The translations under genes and the position numbers were made by a program. From positions 12,902-76,901 of the forward strand of contig JAIEPZ010000018.1 of NCBI GenBank assembly GCA_019748135.1: a DNA stretch of 64,000 nt, in the 5' to 3' direction. Below the pieces are notes generated by a model. That model searched no databases. It saw only the letters and a list, made by a program, of their open reading frames with translations, and was not told where the DNA came from. Each line of letters starts with the position of its first letter. Position 1 is the stretch's first letter. Below are positions 21,035 to 33,556 of this stretch, piece after piece. Source of the DNA: Hyphomicrobiales bacterium. Its GTDB lineage: Bacteria; Pseudomonadota; Alphaproteobacteria; Rhizobiales; UBA4765.

Positions 21035-21123
21035 TGGTGCGGGCGGCCGGACTTGAACCGGCACAGACCTTTCGGTCCGACGGATTTTAAGTCCGTTGCG
21101 TCTACCGATTTCGCCACGCCCGC
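21035..21123 (-). tRNA. tRNA-Leu (anticodon UAA)
   Basis: The reverse complement reads GCGGGCG...ACGGA-CTTAAAA-TCCGT...GCCGG-TTCAAGT-CCGGC-CGCCCGC-ACCA. It has a 7-bp acceptor stem, a long variable arm, a T-loop and an encoded CCA. Confidence 0.9.
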
Positions 21124-24362: not shown

Positions 24363-24908
24363 ATGCCCCATATCACTCCTCTCGCCCACGCTGATACGAC
24401 TGGCGACGTCAAGACGACGCTCGATACCATCAAAAACAGGATTGGCATGGTGCCCAATCTCTACGCGACGCTTGCCAAGGCACCCGCCGCCCTCAATGGC
24501 TTGCTGGCGCTCGGTGGCGCCCTCGAGAAAGGCCATCTGAGCAAACCGGAAGCGGAACTCATCGCCCTCATCGTTGGCCAGTTGAACGATTGCTCCTATT
24601 GCATCTCCGCCCATTCGATGATCGCCAAGGGCGCAGGCATCAGCCCGGCCGACATTCTGGCTGCGCGCGCCGGCACTCTGACAGGCGGGCGCAATGGCGC
24701 CATCGTCGCGCTTGCCAAAGCGATCGTCGAGAAGAAGGGCCATGTCGCCGCCGCCGATATCAAGGCTGCCAAGACGGGCGGGCTCGGCGAGGCCGAAATC
24801 CTTGAAGTAACCGCCCATGTGGTGAAGAACATCTTCACCAATTACGCCAACCACGTCGCTGACACAGACGTTGACTTTCCCAAGGTCGACCTCAAGCTGA
24901 CGGCCTGA
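24363..24908 (+). CDS. carboxymuconolactone decarboxylase / AhpD-like protein
   Basis: 'NDCSYCISAH' CxxC-H motif. Start set at the ATG at 24363 (MPHITPL). Confidence 0.85.
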   Translation: MPHITPLAHADTTGDVKTTLDTIKNRIGMVPNLYATLAKAPAALNGLLALGGALEKGHLSKPEAELIALIVGQLNDCSYCISAHSMIAKGAGISPADILAARAGTLTGGRNGAIVALAKAIVEKKGHVAAADIKAAKTGGLGEAEILEVTAHVVKNIFTNYANHVADTDVDFPKVDLKLTA

Positions 24909-24935
24909 TCCGTCGCACTCCCGGTGACATCTGTG

Positions 24936-24966
24936 AAGGCCGCCTTCCGGGGCGGCCTTTTCTATT
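24936..24966 (+). terminator. rho-independent terminator
   Basis: Stem AAGGCCGCC/GGCGGCCTT followed by TTCTATT. Confidence 0.65.
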
Positions 24967-25078
24967 GCCCGTTTTTTAAGCGATGATGCCCTGCACGCGC
25001 CATTGCACCTTTCTCAGGCACGTGCACAATTCTTCCTGGTGGCGATTGGCTGACGTCGCAGCGTGAGGACGATCAAGG

Positions 25079-26497
25079 GTGACCATGCCTTTCGATGAAA
25101 TGCATTCCGATCCTGCGGGAATTCGTTCCCCCTATCGCGATATCCAGTCATGGCTTGAATCAGCCCCCCTTGAGATGCTGGCACGCAAGCGTCATGAAGC
25201 CGAACTGTTTTTCCGCCGCATCGGCATCACCTTCGCCGTATATGGCGACAAGGAAGGCTCTGAACGTCTTATTCCCTTTGATATCGTGCCGCGTATTCTC
25301 TCGCGCCAGGAATGGCAGCGCCTGTCGCGCGGCCTTGAACAGCGCGTCAAGGCTCTGAACGCCTTCATCAAGGACGTTTACGGTGCCCGCGACTGTCTGA
25401 ATGCCGGTATCATTCCAGCCGAGCTGGTGCTGCAAAATCCATCGTTCAGACCGGAAATGACCCGAATCCGCACCGCCCACGACATCTACGTGATGATTGC
25501 CGGGATCGATATCGTCCGCGTTGATGCTGACACGTTCTACGTGCTTGAGGATAATGCGCGCACCCCCTCCGGCGTCAGCTATATGCTGGAAAACCGCGAA
25601 GTCATGCTGCGCATGTTTCCCGAGCTGTTTCAAAACAACCGCGTGCTGCCGGTCGAGAAATACACCGACGATCTGCTTGCCACCCTGAAATCGATCGCGC
25701 CCCGCTCGGCCACCTCCGACCCCAATGTCGTGCTGCTGACACCGGGCGTCTATAATTCGGCCTATTATGAACACTCGTTTCTGGCCGACAAGCTTGGCAT
25801 TGAGCTGGTCGAGGGCAGCGACCTCATCGTCAACGGCGATATCGTCTACATGCGCACCACCGAGGGGTTGAAGCGCGTCGACGTCATCTATCGCCGCGTC
25901 GACGATGAATTCCTCGATCCGCTGGCCTTCAATCCGCACTCCATGCTGGGTGTTGCCGGGTTGATGGGCGCTTACAAGGCCGGCAACGTCTCGCTCACCA
26001 ATGCGGTTGGCACCGGCGTTGCCGACGACAAAGCCGTTTACAGCTACATGCCCGAGATCATCCGTTTCTATCTTGGCGAGGAGGCGATCCTTAAGAATGT
26101 CCCGACCTGGCGGTGCCGTGAGCCGGACGCGCTTGCCTATGTGCTGGAACACATTGGCGAGCTTGTCGTCAAAGAAGTTCACGGCTCAGGCGGCTACGGC
26201 ATGCTGGTTGGTCCCAAGGCCGACAAGGCGACACGCGAGGCTTTTGCTGAAAAGCTGCGCGCCAACCCGGAAAATTACATCGCCCAGCCAACCCTTGCGC
26301 TCTCAACCGTGCCCACCCTGGTCGACGAAGGCATCGCGCCGCGCCATGTCGATCTGCGTCCCTTCGTCCTGTCAGGTGCTGACAAGATCCGCATCGTTCC
26401 AGGCGGCCTCACCCGCGTGGCGCTTCGCGAGGGATCACTGGTCGTCAATTCCTCGCAAGGCGGCGGCACCAAGGACACCTGGGTCGTTGATCAGTAA
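25079..26497 (+). CDS. circularly permuted type-2 ATP-grasp protein
   Basis: 472 aa. 'RIGITFAVYGD...ERLIPFDIVPRIL', 'RTPSGVSYMLENR' and 'VVKEVHGSGGYGM' match my memory of the family that heads alpha-E/transglutaminase operons. GTG 25079 or ATG 25085 could be the start. Confidence 0.88.
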   Translation: MTMPFDEMHSDPAGIRSPYRDIQSWLESAPLEMLARKRHEAELFFRRIGITFAVYGDKEGSERLIPFDIVPRILSRQEWQRLSRGLEQRVKALNAFIKDVYGARDCLNAGIIPAELVLQNPSFRPEMTRIRTAHDIYVMIAGIDIVRVDADTFYVLEDNARTPSGVSYMLENREVMLRMFPELFQNNRVLPVEKYTDDLLATLKSIAPRSATSDPNVVLLTPGVYNSAYYEHSFLADKLGIELVEGSDLIVNGDIVYMRTTEGLKRVDVIYRRVDDEFLDPLAFNPHSMLGVAGLMGAYKAGNVSLTNAVGTGVADDKAVYSYMPEIIRFYLGEEAILKNVPTWRCREPDALAYVLEHIGELVVKEVHGSGGYGMLVGPKADKATREAFAEKLRANPENYIAQPTLALSTVPTLVDEGIAPRHVDLRPFVLSGADKIRIVPGGLTRVALREGSLVVNSSQGGGTKDTWVVDQ

Positions 26498-26508
26498 GGA
26501 TACACCTG

Positions 26509-27453
26509 ATGCTTTCCCGCACCGCCGATAATCTGTTCTGGCTGTCGCGCTATATAGAGCGGGCGGAAAACCTTGCCCGCATTCTCGATGTCGCCTCGCG
26601 CCTTGCCAATCTGCCATCAGCCTATGCCGGCACATCGAATGAATGGGAAAGCGCGGTGGCGACCGCTGCCTGCGTCGATACCTTCCATGACGCATTTGAC
26701 GAGGTAACCCCCGAGAACGTCATCGAATTTCTGGCATTCTCGCCAACCAACCCCGGCTCGATCCGCAATTGCATCGAAACCGCTCGGCACAATGCCCGCG
26801 CTGTACGCACCGCGCTGACGGTCGAGATGTGGGAGATTATCAACAGCGCCTGGCTCGAATTGCAATCCCTGTCCGCTGAGCGCCTGCGCTCGGGGCCAGA
26901 ACTCGCGCGCTTTCTTGCCTGGGTGAAGGAAATGACGCTGCGCTTTGACGGCATCGCCTATCGGACGATGCTGCGCAATGACGCCTATTATTTCTCGCGC
27001 CTTGGCTTCCAGATCGAGCGGGCCGACAACACGGCCCGCATTCTTGACGTGAAATACCATGTCCTGCTGCCACAGACAGAACCTGTGGGAGGCGGGCTTG
27101 ATTATTTCCAGTGGGCAGCCGTGCTGCGTTCGGTATCGGCGCTGACCTCATATAACTGGATTTACCGCGACAGCGTCAAACCATGGCTTGTTGCCGATTT
27201 TCTCATTCTGCGTGAGGAGATGCCGCGCTCGCTCGCCTGCTGCTACGGCAATATTGTCCGCTTTCTGGATGAGCTGGCTGTTTCCTATGGCCGGCAGGGC
27301 GACGCGCAACGCCTGTCACGGCGCGTCTCGTCGGATCTGCGCAACGCCACCATTGAAGGTATTTTTCAGGGTGGCCTCCATGAATTCATTTCGCAATTCA
27401 TCGTTGGCAACAATCATGTCGCCCAGGCGATCACCAAACAATTCCTGACCTGA
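26509..27453 (+). CDS. alpha-E domain protein
   Basis: 'LSRTADNLFWLSRYIERAENLARILDV' and the second 'YYFSRLGFQIERADNTARILDV' repeat. Confidence 0.88.
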   Translation: MLSRTADNLFWLSRYIERAENLARILDVASRLANLPSAYAGTSNEWESAVATAACVDTFHDAFDEVTPENVIEFLAFSPTNPGSIRNCIETARHNARAVRTALTVEMWEIINSAWLELQSLSAERLRSGPELARFLAWVKEMTLRFDGIAYRTMLRNDAYYFSRLGFQIERADNTARILDVKYHVLLPQTEPVGGGLDYFQWAAVLRSVSALTSYNWIYRDSVKPWLVADFLILREEMPRSLACCYGNIVRFLDELAVSYGRQGDAQRLSRRVSSDLRNATIEGIFQGGLHEFISQFIVGNNHVAQAITKQFLT

Positions 27454-27460
27454 GGCGGCG

Positions 27461-28345
27461 ATGCATATCCACGTAACTCACGAGACGATTTATACGTATC
27501 GCTCGCCCGTCAATCACCTCATCCAGATCCTCCGCCTCACCCCGCGCGGCCATGTCGGTCAATATGTCGGGAATTGGCGCCTTGAAATCGGCGCAGAATG
27601 CCGCGTCATCCGCGACGAGGACTCCTTCGGCAACATCACCCATGCCTTTTCCATCGACCGCGAGACCGCGAGCCTTCGTGTCATCGCCGAAGGCGATATC
27701 GAAACCGAGGACACAAACGGCGTTGTCCACGGCGCCGTCGAACGGCTTCCCCGCGAATTCTACCTGCGCTCGAGCACGCTCACCGAAGCCGACGCCGCGC
27801 TGCGCCAACTCGCCACCAGCCATGCCGGCGCAGCCAGCCGCGATCAACTCGCCGCCCTCCATGCTCTGATGCTCGATCTCCACCGGATGATCACCTTCAA
27901 CACCAGCGCAACGACACCGGCCACGAGCGCCCGCGAGGCTTTCGCCGCCCGCCAGGGTGTGTGTCAGGATTTCGCCCAGATTTTTGTCACCATCAGTCGG
28001 GCGCTGGGCATCCCGGCGCGTTTCGTTGGTGGCTATCTCCTGCGTTCAGATGACAGTGCCCAGCAGACCGCAGGGCATGCCTGGGCCGAGGCCTATGTCA
28101 ACGGCCTTGGTTGGGTTGGCTTTGATGCTGCCAACTGCGTCTGCGTCACCGGGGACTATGTGCGGGTGGCGGCTGGGCTTGATTCACTTGATGCCACGCC
28201 GGTGCGCGGGGCGCAGCGCGGCGGTGATGGCGAAGCAATGAGTGTCCGGGTAAAGGTCGAACCGCTGCAGGCCGTGCGCAGCCCCCGCCCTATCCCGGTA
28301 ACCCAATCGCAATCGCAGGCATCATTTCCACCATCCCTGTCCTGA
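27461..28345 (+). CDS. transglutaminase family protein (N-terminal Bact_transglu_N-like + core)
   Basis: 'MHIHVTHETIYTYRSPV'. Triad candidates are 'GVCQDFAQIF', 'GHAWAEAY' and 'GFDAAN'. Confidence 0.9.
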   Translation: MHIHVTHETIYTYRSPVNHLIQILRLTPRGHVGQYVGNWRLEIGAECRVIRDEDSFGNITHAFSIDRETASLRVIAEGDIETEDTNGVVHGAVERLPREFYLRSSTLTEADAALRQLATSHAGAASRDQLAALHALMLDLHRMITFNTSATTPATSAREAFAARQGVCQDFAQIFVTISRALGIPARFVGGYLLRSDDSAQQTAGHAWAEAYVNGLGWVGFDAANCVCVTGDYVRVAAGLDSLDATPVRGAQRGGDGEAMSVRVKVEPLQAVRSPRPIPVTQSQSQASFPPSLS

Positions 28346-28441
28346 CCAAGTTGTGCAACCCGCTTCCCATTGCTAAGGCCAGCGCTCGGCCCTGCATTCG
28401 CGGGCAAGGTGCCTTGGGCAAGCAGCAAGGGAGAGCAAACG

Positions 28442-29191
28442 ATGACCTATTGCGTCGGCATTCTGGTCAAGGACGGCATCGTGCTCATCGCCGACACCCG
28501 CACCAATGCCGGTTTCGATGACGTATCGACCTATCGCAAGCTCCATGTCTTCTCGCGCCCCGGCGAAAAGCTGATCGCGCTTGCCACCGCCGGCAATCTG
28601 GCGGTGACGCAATCGGTCATTTCCATGGTGAGCGAGGGCATCAAGAACGAGGAAGGGACGATCGAAACCCTGCTCGATCAGCCCACCATGTTCAAGGCCG
28701 CCCAGTTTGTCGGGCGCGCCATTCGCGCTGTGTATGACGTGGACGGTCAGATGCTGTCGCAGACCGGCGCCAGCTTTGATGTCAGCATGCTGATGGCGGG
28801 CGAGATCAAGGGCGAGGCCATGCGCCTTTTCATGATCTACCGCGCCGGCAATTTCATCGAGGCCACCGCCGACACCTGTTATTTGCAGATCGGCGAGCAC
28901 AAATACGGCAAGCCCATTCTCGACCGTGCTGTCAAATTCGACACCGAAATCTATGACGCGCTGAAGCTTGGCCTCATCTCGATGGATTCAACCATGCGCT
29001 CCAACCTCAGCGTCGGCCTGCCCATCGACATGCTCGTGGCGCGCCGTGGCGCTTGCGCTCCCGAACTTGCCACAAGGATCGAAGCGGGAGAGCCTTATTT
29101 TCACGATCTGCGCGAGCGCTGGTCAGCCGCCCTCCGCGCTGCCCATCTTGCAATTCCGCGCCCGCCCTACAAACAGGCGGCGCAGAAATAA
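28442..29191 (+). CDS. Anbu-type proteasome beta-subunit homologue (peptidase)
   Basis: 'MTYCVGILVKDGIVLIADTRTNAG' places the Thr nucleophile directly after the initiator Met, so no propeptide. Start set at the ATG at 28442. Confidence 0.85.
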   Translation: MTYCVGILVKDGIVLIADTRTNAGFDDVSTYRKLHVFSRPGEKLIALATAGNLAVTQSVISMVSEGIKNEEGTIETLLDQPTMFKAAQFVGRAIRAVYDVDGQMLSQTGASFDVSMLMAGEIKGEAMRLFMIYRAGNFIEATADTCYLQIGEHKYGKPILDRAVKFDTEIYDALKLGLISMDSTMRSNLSVGLPIDMLVARRGACAPELATRIEAGEPYFHDLRERWSAALRAAHLAIPRPPYKQAAQK

Positions 29192-29230
29192 GAAAGCCCG
29201 CGCCATTCAATCCCATCCACCGGAACGCCT

Positions 29231-30394
29231 ATGCGCATCATCGATATCCGCGAGATAACGAAGCCCATCGCCTCGCCTATCCGCAATGCCTATATCGATT
29301 TTTCAAAAATGACGACGAGCCTGGTTGCCGTCATCACCGATGTGGTGCGCGGCGGCGAGCGCGTCATTGGCTACGGCTTCAACTCCAATGGCCGCTATGG
29401 TCAGGGCGGGCTCATCCGCGAGCGCTTCCGCGATCGCATTTTGGCGGCAGACCCCGCAAGTTTGATCGATGAGGCCAATGACAATCTCTGCCCGCACAGG
29501 ATCTGGGCAGCGATGATGGCCAATGAAAAGCCCGGCGGCCATGGCGAGCGCTCGGTGGCGGTGGGCACGATCGACATGGCGGTATGGGATGCGGTGGCAA
29601 AAATCGCCGGCAAGCCCCTCTTCCGCCTGCTTGCCGAGCGCAAAGGCCGCACTGCAAATCCGAAGGTCTTCGTCTATGCCGCCGGCGGATATTATTACCC
29701 CGGCAAGGATGACAGCGCACTCTGCGCCGAGATGCGCTCCTATGTTGAGCGCGGCTATAACGTCGTCAAGATGAAGATCGGCGGCGCCAGCCTCACTGAG
29801 GATCAGCGGCGCATCGAGGCCGTGCTGCGCGAGATCGACGGCAAGGCGCAACTGGCGGTTGACGCTAACGGCCGCTTCAATCTTGAAACCGCCATCGCCT
29901 ACGCCAAAATGTTGCGCGCCTACAATCTCTTCTGGTTCGAGGAGATCGGCGATCCGCTCGATTACGCGCTACAGGCGGCAATCAGCGAATTCTATCCCGG
30001 AGCGATGGCAACGGGGGAAAACCTCTTCTCGCATCAGGATGCGCGCAATCTGCTGCGTCATGGCGGCATGCGCCCTGACCGCGACTGGCTTCAATTTGAC
30101 TGCGCGCTTTCCTATGGCCTTGTTGAATATCTGCGCACGCTCGATGTCGTCCACCAGGCCGGCTGGTCGCCCTCTCGCTTGATCCCCCATGGCGGCCACC
30201 AGATGTCGCTCAACATCGCCGCCGGCCTCGGCCTGGGCGGCAATGAAAGCTACCCCGATCTCTTCCAGCCCTATGGCGGCTTCCCCGACGGGGTTGACGT
30301 CATCGATGGCCATATCACCATGCCAGACCTTCCGGGCATCGGCTTTGAGGGCAAAGCGAACCTCATCAAGGTGATGCGCGAACTGGCGGCGTGA
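29231..30394 (+). CDS. enolase-superfamily (mandelate racemase/MLE) enzyme, D-tartrate-dehydratase-like
   Basis: 'VKMKIGG', 'LAVDANGRF', 'FWFEEIGDP' and 'TGENLFS' are metal-ligand/acid-base motifs. The overall pattern recalls the TarD subgroup, from memory only. Confidence 0.8.
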   Translation: MRIIDIREITKPIASPIRNAYIDFSKMTTSLVAVITDVVRGGERVIGYGFNSNGRYGQGGLIRERFRDRILAADPASLIDEANDNLCPHRIWAAMMANEKPGGHGERSVAVGTIDMAVWDAVAKIAGKPLFRLLAERKGRTANPKVFVYAAGGYYYPGKDDSALCAEMRSYVERGYNVVKMKIGGASLTEDQRRIEAVLREIDGKAQLAVDANGRFNLETAIAYAKMLRAYNLFWFEEIGDPLDYALQAAISEFYPGAMATGENLFSHQDARNLLRHGGMRPDRDWLQFDCALSYGLVEYLRTLDVVHQAGWSPSRLIPHGGHQMSLNIAAGLGLGGNESYPDLFQPYGGFPDGVDVIDGHITMPDLPGIGFEGKANLIKVMRELAA

Positions 30395-30568
30395 GGGAGA
30401 GACTGCCAGACCCGCATCGGCACGATGCGCGCAAGTCGTGTGGACGCGATGAGAAGAAGGCGGGATAAGGCACACGCCACGAAAATCACGTTGTGATGCG
30501 CCAAAGGCAATGACACACAAACCCACATTTGTGCTATATGGTACTCCGCTATGAAGGAGCCTTATGAC

Positions 30569-30820
30569 ATGAGCCGACTGACCATCGACGTCACCGACCA
30601 GCAGCACCAAACCCTGAAAGCCCTGGCTGCACTGGAAGGCAAGACAATCAAGCAATACGCTATCGAAAAACTATTTTCGCCGCACGCGGATCAGGAACAG
30701 GCGCTTGCCGAATTAAAGGCGCTTCTGCGCCAGCGCATCGCCGAGGCCGAATTCGGCGAAGTGGACCAGCGCAGCTTCGCAGAGATTGCCGCCGCCGTTC
30801 TCGATACGCGAAAGGCATGA
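30569..30820 (+). CDS. ribbon-helix-helix antitoxin (ParD/CopG-like)
   Basis: 'MSRLTIDVTDQQHQTLKALAALEGKTIKQYAIEKL'. AAGGAG lies upstream of the ATG at 30569. The stop overlaps the toxin start (ATGA). Confidence 0.7.
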   Translation: MSRLTIDVTDQQHQTLKALAALEGKTIKQYAIEKLFSPHADQEQALAELKALLRQRIAEAEFGEVDQRSFAEIAAAVLDTRKA

Positions 30821-31128
30821 GCAAGCCTTATCTGCTGGTAAAAGGCGCTTCCGCTGATCTGGAGGACATCATCCGCTTCACCAATGAACAATGGGGCGAG
30901 GCGCAATGCCGGTCTTACATTGATCAGCTCGAAAGAGCCGCCACCGCGCTTGCAAAAGGCGAAGGGGTCTTCAAGGAGTTACCTTCCATACACCCGATGC
31001 TTCGCATGGCGAAAAGCGGGCGACATTTCATTTTCTGCTTGCCGCGTTCCGGTAGCGTCCCGCTCATCCTTGCCATCTTGCATGAGCGCATGGATATCAT
31101 GGCGCGCCTTCAGAACCGACTGGGTTAA
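30817..31128 (+). CDS. parE: ParE/RelE-family toxin
   Basis: 103 aa. 'DLEDIIRFTNEQWGEAQ...YIDQL' and C-terminal 'GRHFIFCL...ILAILHERMD'. Confidence 0.8.
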   Translation: MSKPYLLVKGASADLEDIIRFTNEQWGEAQCRSYIDQLERAATALAKGEGVFKELPSIHPMLRMAKSGRHFIFCLPRSGSVPLILAILHERMDIMARLQNRLG

Positions 31129-31334
31129 AGCCGCGTCCACCTCCGGAGCGCAACCAGCGCCCATATCGCCTCAACCACGCCGAACGGCCAGGCCCCTTGC
31201 AGGAAGCCATAGGCTGAGCCAAGCGCGCAGGCGCCTGCAAACGCCAGCACGAACCAGGGGCTGCGCGCTTCAAGCGCATAGAAGATGAGCATCAGCGAAA
31301 CGGCGACAAGGCCGAAGAGGGTGAGAGCATCCAT
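31125..31334 (-). CDS. small two-TM membrane protein (hypothetical)
   Basis: 69 aa from the ATG at 31334, with two hydrophobic helices. The 3' end overlaps parE convergently. Confidence 0.5.
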   Translation of the reverse strand: MDALTLFGLVAVSLMLIFYALEARSPWFVLAFAGACALGSAYGFLQGAWPFGVVEAIWALVALRRWTRL

Positions 31335-31433
31335 GGGATGAGGATAACATCGTCGCTGGCGATAATAGAAACCGCCTTGGCAGGCCCACACAAAGCGAAT
31401 ACCTCTTCCGCCTCTTCCCTCCCGGGGCGGATC

Positions 31434-32729
31434 ATGAAAGCCAGCGCGCCCATCATTTCCATCGGCATTGATTTTGGCACCAGCAATACGGTCGTGGCGC
31501 TGGCCTCAGGCGATGGCCATGTGGAATCGATCCGCTTCGAGCATGGCGGCAAAAGCCACAGCGTCTATGTCTCGGCCCTGTGCTTCTGGGAGGAGCAGCC
31601 GGGCAGCGGCGCGCACGCCGAAGGCGGCCCCTGGGCGATCGAGCAATTCCTCGAAGGCCACCATGCCCACCGCTTCATCCAGTCTTTCAAGAGCTTTGCG
31701 GCAAGCGCCAGTTTTGATTCAACAATCATCTTCCGCCAGCGCTACCGCTTCGAGGATTTGCTGGCAGCCTTCCTGAGAACGCTTGCCCGCCACTGCGGCA
31801 AGCGGCTCGATTTTGCAAGCCCCTCCATCATCGTTGGCAGGCCCGTGCGCTTTGCTGGCGGCAACCCGGATGAGGCGCTTGCGCTTCAGCGCTACCAGCA
31901 GGCCTTCGAGCGGATGGGTGCTGGCCATGCCCGCTATGTCTATGAGCCGGTTGGCGCTGCCTTCTCCTTTGCCCGCCACCTCACCCATGATGCGACCGTG
32001 CTGGTCGCCGATTTCGGCGGCGGCACCAGCGATTTTTCCCTCATGCGTTTCTCGCGCGCAGGTGGCGTGCAGCGCGCCGAGGCGCTTGGCCATGGCGGCA
32101 TCGGCATTGCGGGCGACACCTTCGATTTCCGCATTGTAGATCACATCATTGCGCCGCGCCTTGGCAAGGGCAGTTCCTACCGCTCCTTCGACAAGGTGCT
32201 GCCCATTCCCAACCACTACTTCGCCAATCTGGCGCGCTGGCACAATCTGGCGATGATGAAGGGCAATGGCGATCTGCGCGAAATAAAAAAGCTCGCCCAT
32301 CTGGCGCTGGAGCCGGAGCGCCTGCAGGATTTCATCACCCTCGTTGATCTTGATCTGGGCTTTCTGCTCTACCGCGCCGTGTCGGACGCCAAGATGGCGC
32401 TCTCGGCTGAGGAGGAAGTAGAGTTCCGCTTCCAGACCAGCGGCCTTGATATTGCTTCGACCCTCACGCGGCAGGACTTCGAAGAGTGGATTGCTGACGA
32501 CATCGCGCGCATTGGCGCCACCATCGACACGGTTCTGGCGGAGGCCCATGTCACGCCCGATGAGGTGGAAAAGGTCTTCCTCACCGGCGGCACCTCTTTT
32601 GTGCCGGCCGTACGTCGCCTGTTCGATGAGCGCTTCGGGCATGAGCGGCTGATTGCAGCAGACCAGTTTGAATCGATTGCGAGCGGGCTAGCGCTCATTG
32701 GCGCAAATATTAACATTGCCCCCATATAA
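31434..32729 (+). CDS. Hsp70-family ATPase (YegD-like, no substrate-binding domain)
   Basis: Actin-fold motifs 'IGIDFGTSNTVVA', 'VADFGGGTSDFSL' and 'LTGGTSFVPAV'. About 430 aa, so it lacks the DnaK C-terminal domain. Confidence 0.85.
   Translation: MKASAPIISIGIDFGTSNTVVALASGDGHVESIRFEHGGKSHSVYVSALCFWEEQPGSGAHAEGGPWAIEQFLEGHHAHRFIQSFKSFAASASFDSTIIFRQRYRFEDLLAAFLRTLARHCGKRLDFASPSIIVGRPVRFAGGNPDEALALQRYQQAFERMGAGHARYVYEPVGAAFSFARHLTHDATVLVADFGGGTSDFSLMRFSRAGGVQRAEALGHGGIGIAGDTFDFRIVDHIIAPRLGKGSSYRSFDKVLPIPNHYFANLARWHNLAMMKGNGDLREIKKLAHLALEPERLQDFITLVDLDLGFLLYRAVSDAKMALSAEEEVEFRFQTSGLDIASTLTRQDFEEWIADDIARIGATIDTVLAEAHVTPDEVEKVFLTGGTSFVPAVRRLFDERFGHERLIAADQFESIASGLALIGANINIAPI
32690..32710. repeat. 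left border motif pair of the low-GC insertion
   Basis: AGCGCTCA (32690-97), then T, then TGGCGCAAATAT (32699-710). The same two motifs recur at 33119-33138 in swapped order. Confidence 0.6.
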
Positions 32730-33054
32730 AAACAATCAATAAAAAAACAGAAAAAATCAATGAAACAAGTATAACAGTAAATTCGTTACGGGCTTTTATC
32801 ATGTTTACTATGTCGGGATCTTTTTGCTCATCAGGAGTCAATTTGAATTTAGCTCCAAATGAAATTGCTCCGGGACCTGGGCTCGGCATGCCAGACAGTA
32901 AAAAATAGTAAATGTTGAACTTTGATTGTTTCTTATTCAATTTTCTTTGCAACTTCCTTGCGGGAAAATATAGACTAATAATCGTACAAGAAATTAAATA
33001 CACATAAAATGCGATAGACGGATAATTAGCATTTAATTGGCAAAATAACTTCAT
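32710..33054 (-). CDS. two-TM small protein encoded in the low-GC block (hypothetical; candidate toxin/cargo)
   Basis: A 114-codon ORF in ~30% GC DNA, where stop codons are frequent. TM segments are 'IAFYVYLISCTIISLYF' and 'FTVILVSLIFSVFLLIVFIW', with a K-rich loop. An AGG lies ~10 nt upstream of the ATG. Confidence 0.5.
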   Translation of the reverse strand: MKLFCQLNANYPSIAFYVYLISCTIISLYFPARKLQRKLNKKQSKFNIYYFLLSGMPSPGPGAISFGAKFKLTPDEQKDPDIVNMIKARNEFTVILVSLIFSVFLLIVFIWGQC

Positions 33055-33118
33055 GTTACGATTACCTGCGTTCGCCTAATCATCCTAATAATTACTATTA
33101 TGTATTTTTAAGCTGTTA
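32711..33118. other. low-GC inserted block (~0.4 kb)
   Basis: Hand counts of two 60-nt lines give ~28% and ~35% G+C, against >60% in the flanks. The breakpoints coincide with the last codons of the Hsp70-like gene and the stop codon of the DinJ-like gene. Confidence 0.7.
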
Positions 33119-33138
33119 TGGCGCATTTATAGCGCTCA
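33119..33138. repeat. right border motif pair of the low-GC insertion
   Basis: TGGCGCATTTAT (33119-30) followed directly by AGCGCTCA (33131-38). The TCA is the DinJ stop codon on the minus strand. Confidence 0.6.
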
Positions 33139-33399
33139 ATCTCCCTCACGCAGATCATCCATCAGGGCATCGATGGTCTTGAAGCGTGGCAATTTGCCTG
33201 CCCGCGCTTCACGCATGGCGGCGATGGTCGTCTCGTTCGGCACCAGAGGCTCGAACGGCAAGGCCTTTTCAGCCGCAATACGCATCATCATCATGCGAAA
33301 GGCATCGGATGCGGTGAGACCCATCGCGTCAAGCACGGCACTTGCCTCGTCTTTAATGCGCTGATTGATCCGCGCCCGTATCACTGCATTTTCAGCCAT
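33136..33399 (-). CDS. RelB/DinJ-family antitoxin
   Basis: 'VIRARINQRIKDEASAVLDAMGLTASDAFRMMMMRIAAEKALPFEP'. GAGGTG Shine-Dalgarno sequence upstream. Confidence 0.85.
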   Translation of the reverse strand: MAENAVIRARINQRIKDEASAVLDAMGLTASDAFRMMMMRIAAEKALPFEPLVPNETTIAAMREARAGKLPRFKTIDALMDDLREGD

Positions 33400-33412
33400 G
33401 TTTCACCTCTGC

Positions 33413-33425
33413 GCTACAATGTAGC
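33413..33425. promoter_or_regulatory. 13-bp perfect palindrome upstream of the dinJ-like gene (candidate operator)
   Basis: GCTACA-A-TGTAGC lies 14-26 nt upstream of the start codon. Confidence 0.35.
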
Positions 33426-33556
33426 ACAAATGGATATGACCGCAAAAGTTTCAAACAGCGCTGCCCCAACGCCTTGACTCATCCGCATATTCGACAAGTC
33501 TGTCGGGCCTAGACATTCACGCACGAGAACACCACGCAATCCGGGAGTATCCTCAC

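Follow-up and report, generated by a model that had tools for sequence, protein, structure and literature searches.

The window analysed here, 64,000 nucleotides (nt) of contig JAIEPZ010000018.1 from a Hyphomicrobiales bacterium, carries four consecutive genes for a circularly permuted ATP-grasp protein, an Alpha-E protein, a transglutaminase-like protein as well as Anbu, a homologue of the proteasome β subunit. On sequence grounds these genes are an intact, ordinary copy of the Anbu operon, a system already known since 2008-2009, and this identification is close to certain. The quartet was described by Valas and Bourne 2008 (PMC3235984) and, in the part of Iyer et al. 2009 relayed by later papers, was read as a peptide-synthesis or tagging system (PMC5666114, PMC6376114). 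Structures of Anbu were solved in 2017-18 (PMC5666114, PMC6376114), and in 2021 it was still stated that “no function is known” (PMC8665760); a full-text search found no publication after 2018 that defines the function of the operon. A preliminary description of this DNA had given the tagging prediction and the solved structures accurately. It had also ranked the genes as the most system-like unknown block of the window; they are an ordinary copy of a known and very widespread operon. That the operon is functional and canonical on this alphaproteobacterial chromosome, and that it works by the mechanism proposed below, is a broader claim, which we regard as moderately probable.

Gene Organization and Protein Families

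The four genes lie on the + strand in the order ATP-grasp, Alpha-E, transglutaminase-like, Anbu, and are separated by gaps of 11, 7, and 96 nt, a co-directional packing already noted in the preliminary description and borne out by the coordinates of the open reading frames (ORFs; Table 1). Each start codon is preceded by a Shine-Dalgarno-like sequence: GAGGA 5′ of the GTG at 25079, AAGGA 5′ of 26509, GAGG 5′ of 27461, and AAGGGAGAG (28427-28435) ahead of 28442. The GTG start of the ATP-grasp gene is conserved among near relatives, whereas the ATG two codons on, at 25085, is not. For Anbu, the in-frame TTG at 28370 was considered as a start that would add a 24-residue propeptide, and was rejected because every homologue begins with MTY and because homology to the closest relative extends only from 28411, 31 nt 5′ of the ATG. 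No internal terminator above chance was found within the operon by a terminator scan or by folding. Ratios of nonsynonymous to synonymous substitution (dN/dS) against relatives range from 0.05 to 0.25 (0.05-0.09 for the ATP-grasp gene and 0.08-0.14 for Anbu), values that are rough because most comparisons are close to saturated at synonymous sites; they indicate that the four genes are maintained under purifying selection.

Table 1. Coordinates of the operon genes and of the features that surround them, with the evidence for each or a remark on it.
Feature	Position	Strand	Evidence or remark
ATP-grasp gene, 472 amino acids (aa), GTG start	25079-26497	+	CP_ATPgrasp_2; COG2308
Alpha-E gene, 314 aa	26509-27453	+	Pfam Alpha-E; COG2307
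Transglutaminase-like gene, 294 aa	27461-28345	+	Bact_transglu_N and Transglut_core; COG1305
Spacer between transglutaminase-like gene and Anbu, 96 nt	28346-28441	+	Shine-Dalgarno at 28427-28435
Anbu gene, 249 aa, proteasome-β homologue	28442-29191	+	Solved Anbu chains; COG3484
CMD/AhpD-like gene, 181 aa, CxxC, directly 5′ of the operon	24363-24908		Common to near relatives only
Intrinsic terminator of the CMD/AhpD-like gene; 5′ boundary of the unit	24935..24968	+	Folding, conservation
5′ leader/promoter region	24969..25078	+	Window aligned to three near relatives
Insertion relative to L081, outside the system	29209..33555	.	blastn, Pfam
Enolase-superfamily (MR_MLE) gene in the insertion	29231-30394		39 nt after Anbu
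ParD/ParE toxin-antitoxin pair in the insertion	30551-31128
Hsp70/MreB-like ATPase gene in the insertion	31338-32729
Low-GC ORF in the insertion	32710-33054	-	No family match
Orphan RelB antitoxin gene in the insertion	33136-33399	-

The four family assignments put forward in the preliminary description hold, since profile searches place all four proteins above the Pfam cut-offs and three of the four match solved structures. The ATP-grasp protein matches CP_ATPgrasp_2 at 3.3e-168 (559.9 bits against a cut-off of 32) and PDB entry 3n6x at 1.9e-193 over its full length; by family it is a circularly permuted ATP-grasp amidoligase, for which ligation is predicted. The Alpha-E protein matches its Pfam family at 6.1e-98 (328.6 bits against a cut-off of 20.8), and its two Glu-Arg motifs, E17-R18 (26557-26562) and E170-R171 (27016-27021), are invariant in 43 homologues. 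Its AlphaFold2 (AF2) model is all-helical, with a predicted local distance difference test (pLDDT) value of 82.8. A sequence search of solved structures returned no homologue of this protein, and Foldseek returned no fold analogue from the PDB (best E-value 0.53, no TM-score above 0.35).

The transglutaminase-like protein exceeds the cut-offs of both Transglut_core (79.9 bits against 23) and Bact_transglu_N (70.2 bits against 27), and it matches PDB entry 3isr at 1e-13; its AF2 model (pLDDT 91) matches the fold of 3isr over the full length with TM-scores of 0.74-0.78. The predicted triad is made up of Cys168 (27962-27964, in GVCQDF), His206 (28076-28078, in GHAWAE) and Asp222 (28124-28126, in GFDAAN), which in alignments fall on the catalytic residues of 3isr and 6g49, two transglutaminase-like structures, in agreement with the intact Cys/His/Asp set that had been pointed out in these motifs.

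Anbu scores 35.1 bits with the Pfam Proteasome model, against a cut-off of 22.4, and matches the PDB chains 5loy, 5nyj, 5nyf, 5nyw, and 5lox with E-values of 3e-78 to 1e-59. At E ≤ 0.001, the search of solved structures retrieved only five distinct Anbu sequences and no HslV or 20S subunits. The protein begins MTYCVG, and its predicted catalytic residues Thr2 (28445-28447), Asp18 (28493-28495), and Lys33 (28538-28540) are invariant in 24 homologues and aligned with 5loy and 5nyj. The earlier observation of a Thr directly after the initiator Met, with no propeptide, is confirmed by the homologues, which likewise begin MTY. As the alignment to solved Anbu chains runs through residue 243, the C-terminal helical extension (H5) is probably present. 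The window holds no second proteasome-family gene and no paralogous copy of the system.

Conservation and Limits of the Unit

A scan of one genome per species yielded 80 Hyphomicrobiales loci, a set without a close species representative, since the best identity to the Anbu protein of the window is 72%. In about 60 of the 80, wherever the contig is long enough, the genes follow the order seen in the window, with median gaps of 16, 81, and 127 nt. The junction between the transglutaminase-like gene and Anbu varies from 25 to 6507 nt and is longer than 300 nt at 25 of the 71 loci; among the genes inserted there are a CMD-family gene, an opposite-strand gene for a solute-binding protein, and genes for MFS transporters. 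Beyond 31 nt 5′ of Anbu, the closest relative has a sequence unrelated to that of the window. By these comparisons the junction is a variable breakpoint, and since unrelated genes occupy it at 25 of 71 loci, the tie between Anbu and the other three genes is only a loose one. Such loose coupling fits one data set from Pseudomonas putida, in which Anbu was induced 1.1-4.8-fold and the other three genes 11-37-fold (PMC7801951).

Pushed further, the same observations could mean that the four genes are conserved-synteny neighbours only, and that Anbu is transcribed and used independently. The 96-nt spacer of the window, the expansion of the junction to as much as 6.5 kilobases (kb) elsewhere, the unrelated and partly opposite-strand genes that it hosts, and its divergence in the closest relative would all accord with this explanation, as would the fact that separate fragments upstream of both PP_2685 and PP_2688 were chosen, for building biosensors in P. 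putida, as candidate promoters sensitive to nitrogen (PMC8050072). It is nevertheless highly improbable, since the four-gene order and linkage survive across the order-level sample, published surveys show the linkage across phyla (PMC6376114, PMC3235984), and genes that have become separated are still predicted to share a regulon (PMC3235984). Moreover, the spacer of the window shows no terminator, promoter or Rfam match and folds with a z-score of -0.5, on which grounds a structured RNA or an internal promoter at this place was also discarded.

Two contigs of the closest relative, L081 (1-356) and L082, end about 320-390 nt upstream of Anbu (96% identical), in AT-rich sequence unrelated to the transglutaminase gene of the window. 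That strain probably has an interruption at its transglutaminase-Anbu junction, a repeat or a mobile element being one possible cause.

On its 5′ side, the unit is bounded by the intrinsic terminator of the upstream CMD/AhpD-like gene. The hairpin (24935-24960), which counts two G-U pairs among its 11 and leads into a U-rich tail, has a folding energy of -21.1 kcal/mol and a z-score of -3.0, and it is kept with compensatory stem changes in three near relatives (L084, L085, and L086); a consensus terminator scanner missed it, and it was detected by folding. The terminator that had been claimed at 24936-24966 is thus real, but the accompanying statement that the unit is isolated stands for this end alone: folding found no terminator 3′ of Anbu, where the next gene starts 39 nt on, so that sequence signals delimit the unit on the 5′ side only. 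The 3′ limit comes from comparison instead. In a blastn comparison with the closest relative, L081, homology runs to 29208 and starts again at 33556, which corresponds to an insertion of about 4.35 kb. The enolase-superfamily gene was considered as a fifth member and rejected, as it lies within this insertion and follows Anbu in 0 of the 80 loci; because this downstream gene belongs to a strain-specific insertion and is conserved nowhere, the system ends at Anbu.

Regulation and the Link to Nitrogen

In P. putida, the operon was the most up-regulated gene set under nitrogen limitation in Hervas 2008 (as relayed by PMC3235984), the induction of PP_2685-2688 has been attributed to NtrB/NtrC (PMC7801951), and the operon is induced on nitrate relative to ammonium (PMC8050072). 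COG3484 is also listed among the members of the sigma-54 regulon in a 2025 survey. The preliminary description, which had held that neither substrate nor phenotype is defined, had missed this physiological lead, already published for P. putida.

Sigma-54 promoters were sought as matches to the -24/-12 consensus (TGGCAC-N5-TTGC) at 10 or more of 12 positions, at most 300 nt upstream of the ATP-grasp gene. They are found in 43 of 60 related loci, which are not independent because many of them are from Bradyrhizobium, against 17 of 1200 control segments taken at random from these loci. The strong promoter of the relatives reads TGGCCCG-N4-TTGCT or similar and starts 47-140 nt 5′ of the ATP-grasp start codon; in addition to Bradyrhizobium, it is carried by Pseudorhodoplanes, several Xanthobacteraceae, metagenome-assembled genomes (MAGs) of unclassified Hyphomicrobiales, and Alsobacter soli (L010).

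The window differs in this respect, with a best match of 5 of 12 positions in the 300 nt upstream of its ATP-grasp gene and no match at two or fewer mismatches on the + strand of 24930-25078. Bosea-type loci likewise have no such promoter. A look-alike at 24991-25007 was rejected, as it has no GG and the wrong spacing, and a consensus scan of the leader (24969-25078) gave no good sigma-70 match. The alignment of the leader with those of the three near relatives brings out two invariant islands, GCCATTGC (24999-25006) and CGTGCACA (25021-25028), the second of which includes the palindrome GTGCAC; they could represent a promoter or an operator. Because the window has no sigma-54 promoter, the nitrogen link is inferred rather than found for this strain.

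A perfect TGGCAC-N5-TTGC match occurs inside the ATP-grasp coding sequence (26008-26022, + strand), over the conserved GTGVA motif, and is probably a coding coincidence. Across the window, 104 matches of this type were counted, marginally more than the shuffle mean of 91 ± 9 and within the range of the shuffles, 4 of 100 of which reached 104.

Gln-Rich Tail and Frequent Loss of the Catalytic Cys in the Transglutaminase-Like Family

The C-terminal tail and the catalytic Cys were surveyed in 139 representatives of the transglutaminase-like family clustered at 50% identity (P0241-P0390), not all of which are established members of an Anbu operon. A C-terminal Gln is present in 72 of the 139, and Gln accounts for 17.6% of the last 15 residues compared with 3.0% of the rest; in Anbu homologues, used as a control, the corresponding values are 2.7 and 3.0%. 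Hyphomicrobiales tails are typically of the (Q-S)n type, as in QSQSQSQRQS. In the window, QSQSQ (28304-28318) is followed by eight extra residues, as it is in a 91%-identical relative, and the protein ends in ...TQSQSQASFPPSLS (C-terminal peptide ...VTQSQSQASFPPSLS), which by comparison with its homologues is a degenerate version of the motif. The tail is predicted to be disordered: the last three 10-residue blocks of the AF2 model (about residues 271-294) have pLDDT values of 55-60, and no secondary structure is predicted after residue 268; docking of the tail into the active site of the same protein was considered and set aside, as the model gives only a low-confidence coil that is uninformative on this point.

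Among the same representatives, the catalytic Cys is kept in 85, the His in 121, and the Asp in 130, while Ala, Ser, Pro, or Gly replaces the Cys in the other 54. Operon copies without the Cys are found in Bosea-type loci, Alsobacter, Siculibacillus, and Salinarimonas (L009, L010, L066, and L077). There must thus be lineages in which the Cys chemistry is dispensable. Even the Bosea-type proteins that have no catalytic Cys retain the terminal Gln, and tails with at least three Gln residues occur in 50 of 85 Cys-containing and 19 of 54 Cys-less members, counts that are uncorrected for phylogeny. No mention of the Gln-rich tail or of the frequent Cys loss was found in the accessible Anbu literature.

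As a working hypothesis, the tail may be a substrate, a pseudo-substrate, or a handle. A bolder proposal, modelled on Pup-GGQ or on the substrates of RimK, is that the missing “tag” of the predicted tagging system is the transglutaminase-like protein's own C-terminal tail. The Cys-His-Asp site could deamidate a Gln of the tail or activate it as a thioester or, by a second route, the ATP-grasp/Alpha-E ligase could act on the C-terminal carboxylate and activate it; afterwards the tail could be extended or conjugated, to be trimmed or released by Anbu. We consider this proposal a long shot.

Proposed Mechanism and Alternatives

In the mechanism that we favor, the ATP-grasp protein with Alpha-E, its obligatory helical partner, would use ATP to activate a carboxylate as an acyl-phosphate, in line with Iyer et al. 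2009 as cited by later papers. The pair would then create a bond, amide or isopeptide, on a peptide or protein, and the Cys-His-Asp transglutaminase-like enzyme together with Anbu, a Thr1 N-terminal nucleophile (Ntn) hydrolase, would cleave, transfer, or trim the amide bonds of the product. Thr is a permissive second residue for methionine aminopeptidase. Because this enzyme would remove the initiator Met of Anbu, no propeptide processing should be needed. The system would probably serve nitrogen-limited physiology, as it does in P. putida and as the sigma-54 promoters of most relatives suggest, and in this strain the operon would have to use some other promoter. That a ligase and hydrolases act on one and the same amide-linked substrate has about an even chance of being right; that this substrate is a peptide or protein and not a small molecule is a more tentative proposition. 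The ATP-grasp orthologue of Yersinia bercovieri releases phosphate from ATP, and this release was not stimulated by Glu, Gln, or Anbu (PMC6376114).

Several observations count against this mechanism. The literature yielded no substrate, product, or phenotype of the Anbu operon; purified Anbu cleaves no standard proteasome substrate, no stable complex was obtained, and no specific pull-down was observed with the four Y. bercovieri proteins (PMC6376114). Similarly, co-expression in Pseudomonas aeruginosa gave no altered form of Anbu (PMC5666114). From the comparisons reported above must be added the missing sigma-54 promoter of the window, the unrelated genes that lie at the transglutaminase-Anbu junction in 25 of 71 loci, and the loss of the catalytic Cys in 54 of 139 representatives and in Bosea-type operons.

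One alternative is that Anbu is a bulk or tag-directed degradative protease, akin to HslV or to an uncapped 20S particle, which would recycle protein nitrogen in starvation, while the ligase and the transglutaminase would mark or cross-link its targets (Valas and Bourne 2008; Hervas 2008). Anbu is the closest bacterial relative of the proteasome β subunits, with Thr1, Asp17, and Lys33 intact, and the published induction by nitrogen limitation would suit such a role. However, no AAA+ unfoldase is encoded among the neighbors, which is also true of Anbu loci generally (PMC5666114), the protein assembles into an open split ring or a helix and not into a closed chamber (PMC5666114, PMC8665760), and it showed no activity on LLVY, VGR, or LLE substrates (PMC6376114). 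The much weaker induction of Anbu than of its three partners in one P. putida data set also counts against this alternative, which is unlikely.

Ranked as equally unlikely is that the system makes and breaks a small-molecule amide, such as a thiol-related peptide or a conjugate of the γ-glutamyl or polyamine kind. The ATP-grasp protein would then resemble glutathione or glutathionylspermidine synthetase, and the transglutaminase-like protein and Anbu would be amidases that release ammonia or amines. Indeed, the nearest solved structure, 3n6x, was deposited as a “putative glutathionylspermidine synthase,” but this name is a structural-genomics label only. Genes co-regulated with the operon in P. 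putida and Burkholderia include those of urea, polyamine, and amino-acid transporters, and some Ntn hydrolases are amidases of non-peptide bonds (PMC6376114); on the other hand, neither Glu nor Gln stimulated phosphate release by the Y. bercovieri enzyme, and a dodecameric Anbu with a 294-aa transglutaminase-like protein that has a β-rich N-domain looks better suited to handling proteins. CxxC AhpD-like genes, which would also fit, adjoin the operon in two separate clades, although they belong to two subfamilies, are found in only part of each clade, and come from a family that is abundant in these genomes.

Relation to Known Systems

The window operon has the same families in the same order as the Anbu operons of P. 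putida (PP_2688-PP_2685), Y. bercovieri, P. aeruginosa, and Hyphomicrobium. It shares with them the Met-Thr start without a propeptide, the intact Thr/Asp/Lys set of Anbu and Cys/His/Asp set of the transglutaminase-like protein, and the lack of an AAA+ partner. It differs from them in three respects: it has no sigma-54 promoter, unlike 43 of 60 relatives and the P. putida operon attributed to NtrC; eight residues follow QSQSQ in the tail, which does not end in or next to Gln; and a strain-specific 4.35-kb insertion directly follows Anbu.

By sequence, the operon is not of the proteasome/HslVU type or of the Pup type, and no known defense system was matched. The Thr1 protease subunit HslV is a homologue that relies on a partner for its activity, but it needs the adjacent AAA+ protein HslU, forms closed hexameric rings, and belongs to the heat-shock response, none of which applies to Anbu. 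The neighbors between 21.8 and 34.3 kb (CinA-like, Map, RadC, CMD, enolase-family, ParDE, Hsp70-like, RelB, and SDR) include no linked AAA+ unfoldase and no combination of α and β subunits. A role in anti-phage defense was discarded, as PADLOC matched none of the four proteins.

The Pup-proteasome system of Actinobacteria (Pup, Dop, PafA, Mpa, and 20S) similarly combines an ATP-dependent amidoligase, an amide hydrolase, and a proteasome-family protein. Its handle is the C-terminal Gln of Pup, which is deamidated and then ligated, and the very frequent terminal Gln of the transglutaminase-like proteins offers a loose analogy. In contrast with Pup ligation, the ligase fold here is ATP-grasp rather than glutamine-synthetase-like, there is no AAA+ unfoldase or α subunit, Anbu is an open ring, and no conjugate has ever been seen for the Anbu system. 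No PafA/Dop-like ligase was present among the scanned products at 21.8-34.3 kb, where small ORFs were not screened individually for a tag ending in GGQ/E. ATP-grasp ligases of the RimK and tubulin-tyrosine-ligase type attach amino acids to a carboxylate of a specific protein, either at its C terminus or in a side chain. The likeness to them lies in the ATP-grasp ligase; they are not circularly permuted and have no Alpha-E partner, linked transglutaminase, or linked Ntn hydrolase.

The Anbu operon is among the most widespread bacterial gene sets that combine a ligase with a relative of the proteasome, and working out its role would shed light on how the proteasome and peptide tagging originated. 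The window alone does not make the question of Anbu function more tractable. It does provide modest comparative leads, namely the Gln-rich tail, the frequent loss of the Cys, the loose coupling of Anbu, and the sigma-54 promoters present in most alphaproteobacterial relatives and not in this strain.

Flanking Genes

Membership of the CMD/AhpD-like gene (24363-24908) in the operon is unsupported, as a conserved terminator intervenes. Since it adjoins a divergent TetR gene in two of the three near relatives (L085 and L086), it looks like a unit of its own. CxxC genes of the AhpD/CMD family border the operon in two clades and belong to two different subfamilies. In the window and in L084-L086, the 181-aa type immediately precedes the ATP-grasp gene, and a 135-aa type directly follows the transglutaminase gene in 10 Bradyrhizobium loci and in an unclassified Proteobacteria MAG, L013 (the 11 loci being L013, L019, L023, L026, L029, L031, L035, L036, L039, L040, and L056). 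The family being abundant, their presence beside the operon in two clades may be due to chance. Further upstream, the cinA-like, map, and radC genes represent ordinary chromosomal synteny. At 32-34 kb, the GC content falls to 0.545. Lastly, a tRNA-Leu(TAA) gene at 21035-21123 on the - strand is the sole RNA gene detected in the window by Rfam and ARAGORN.

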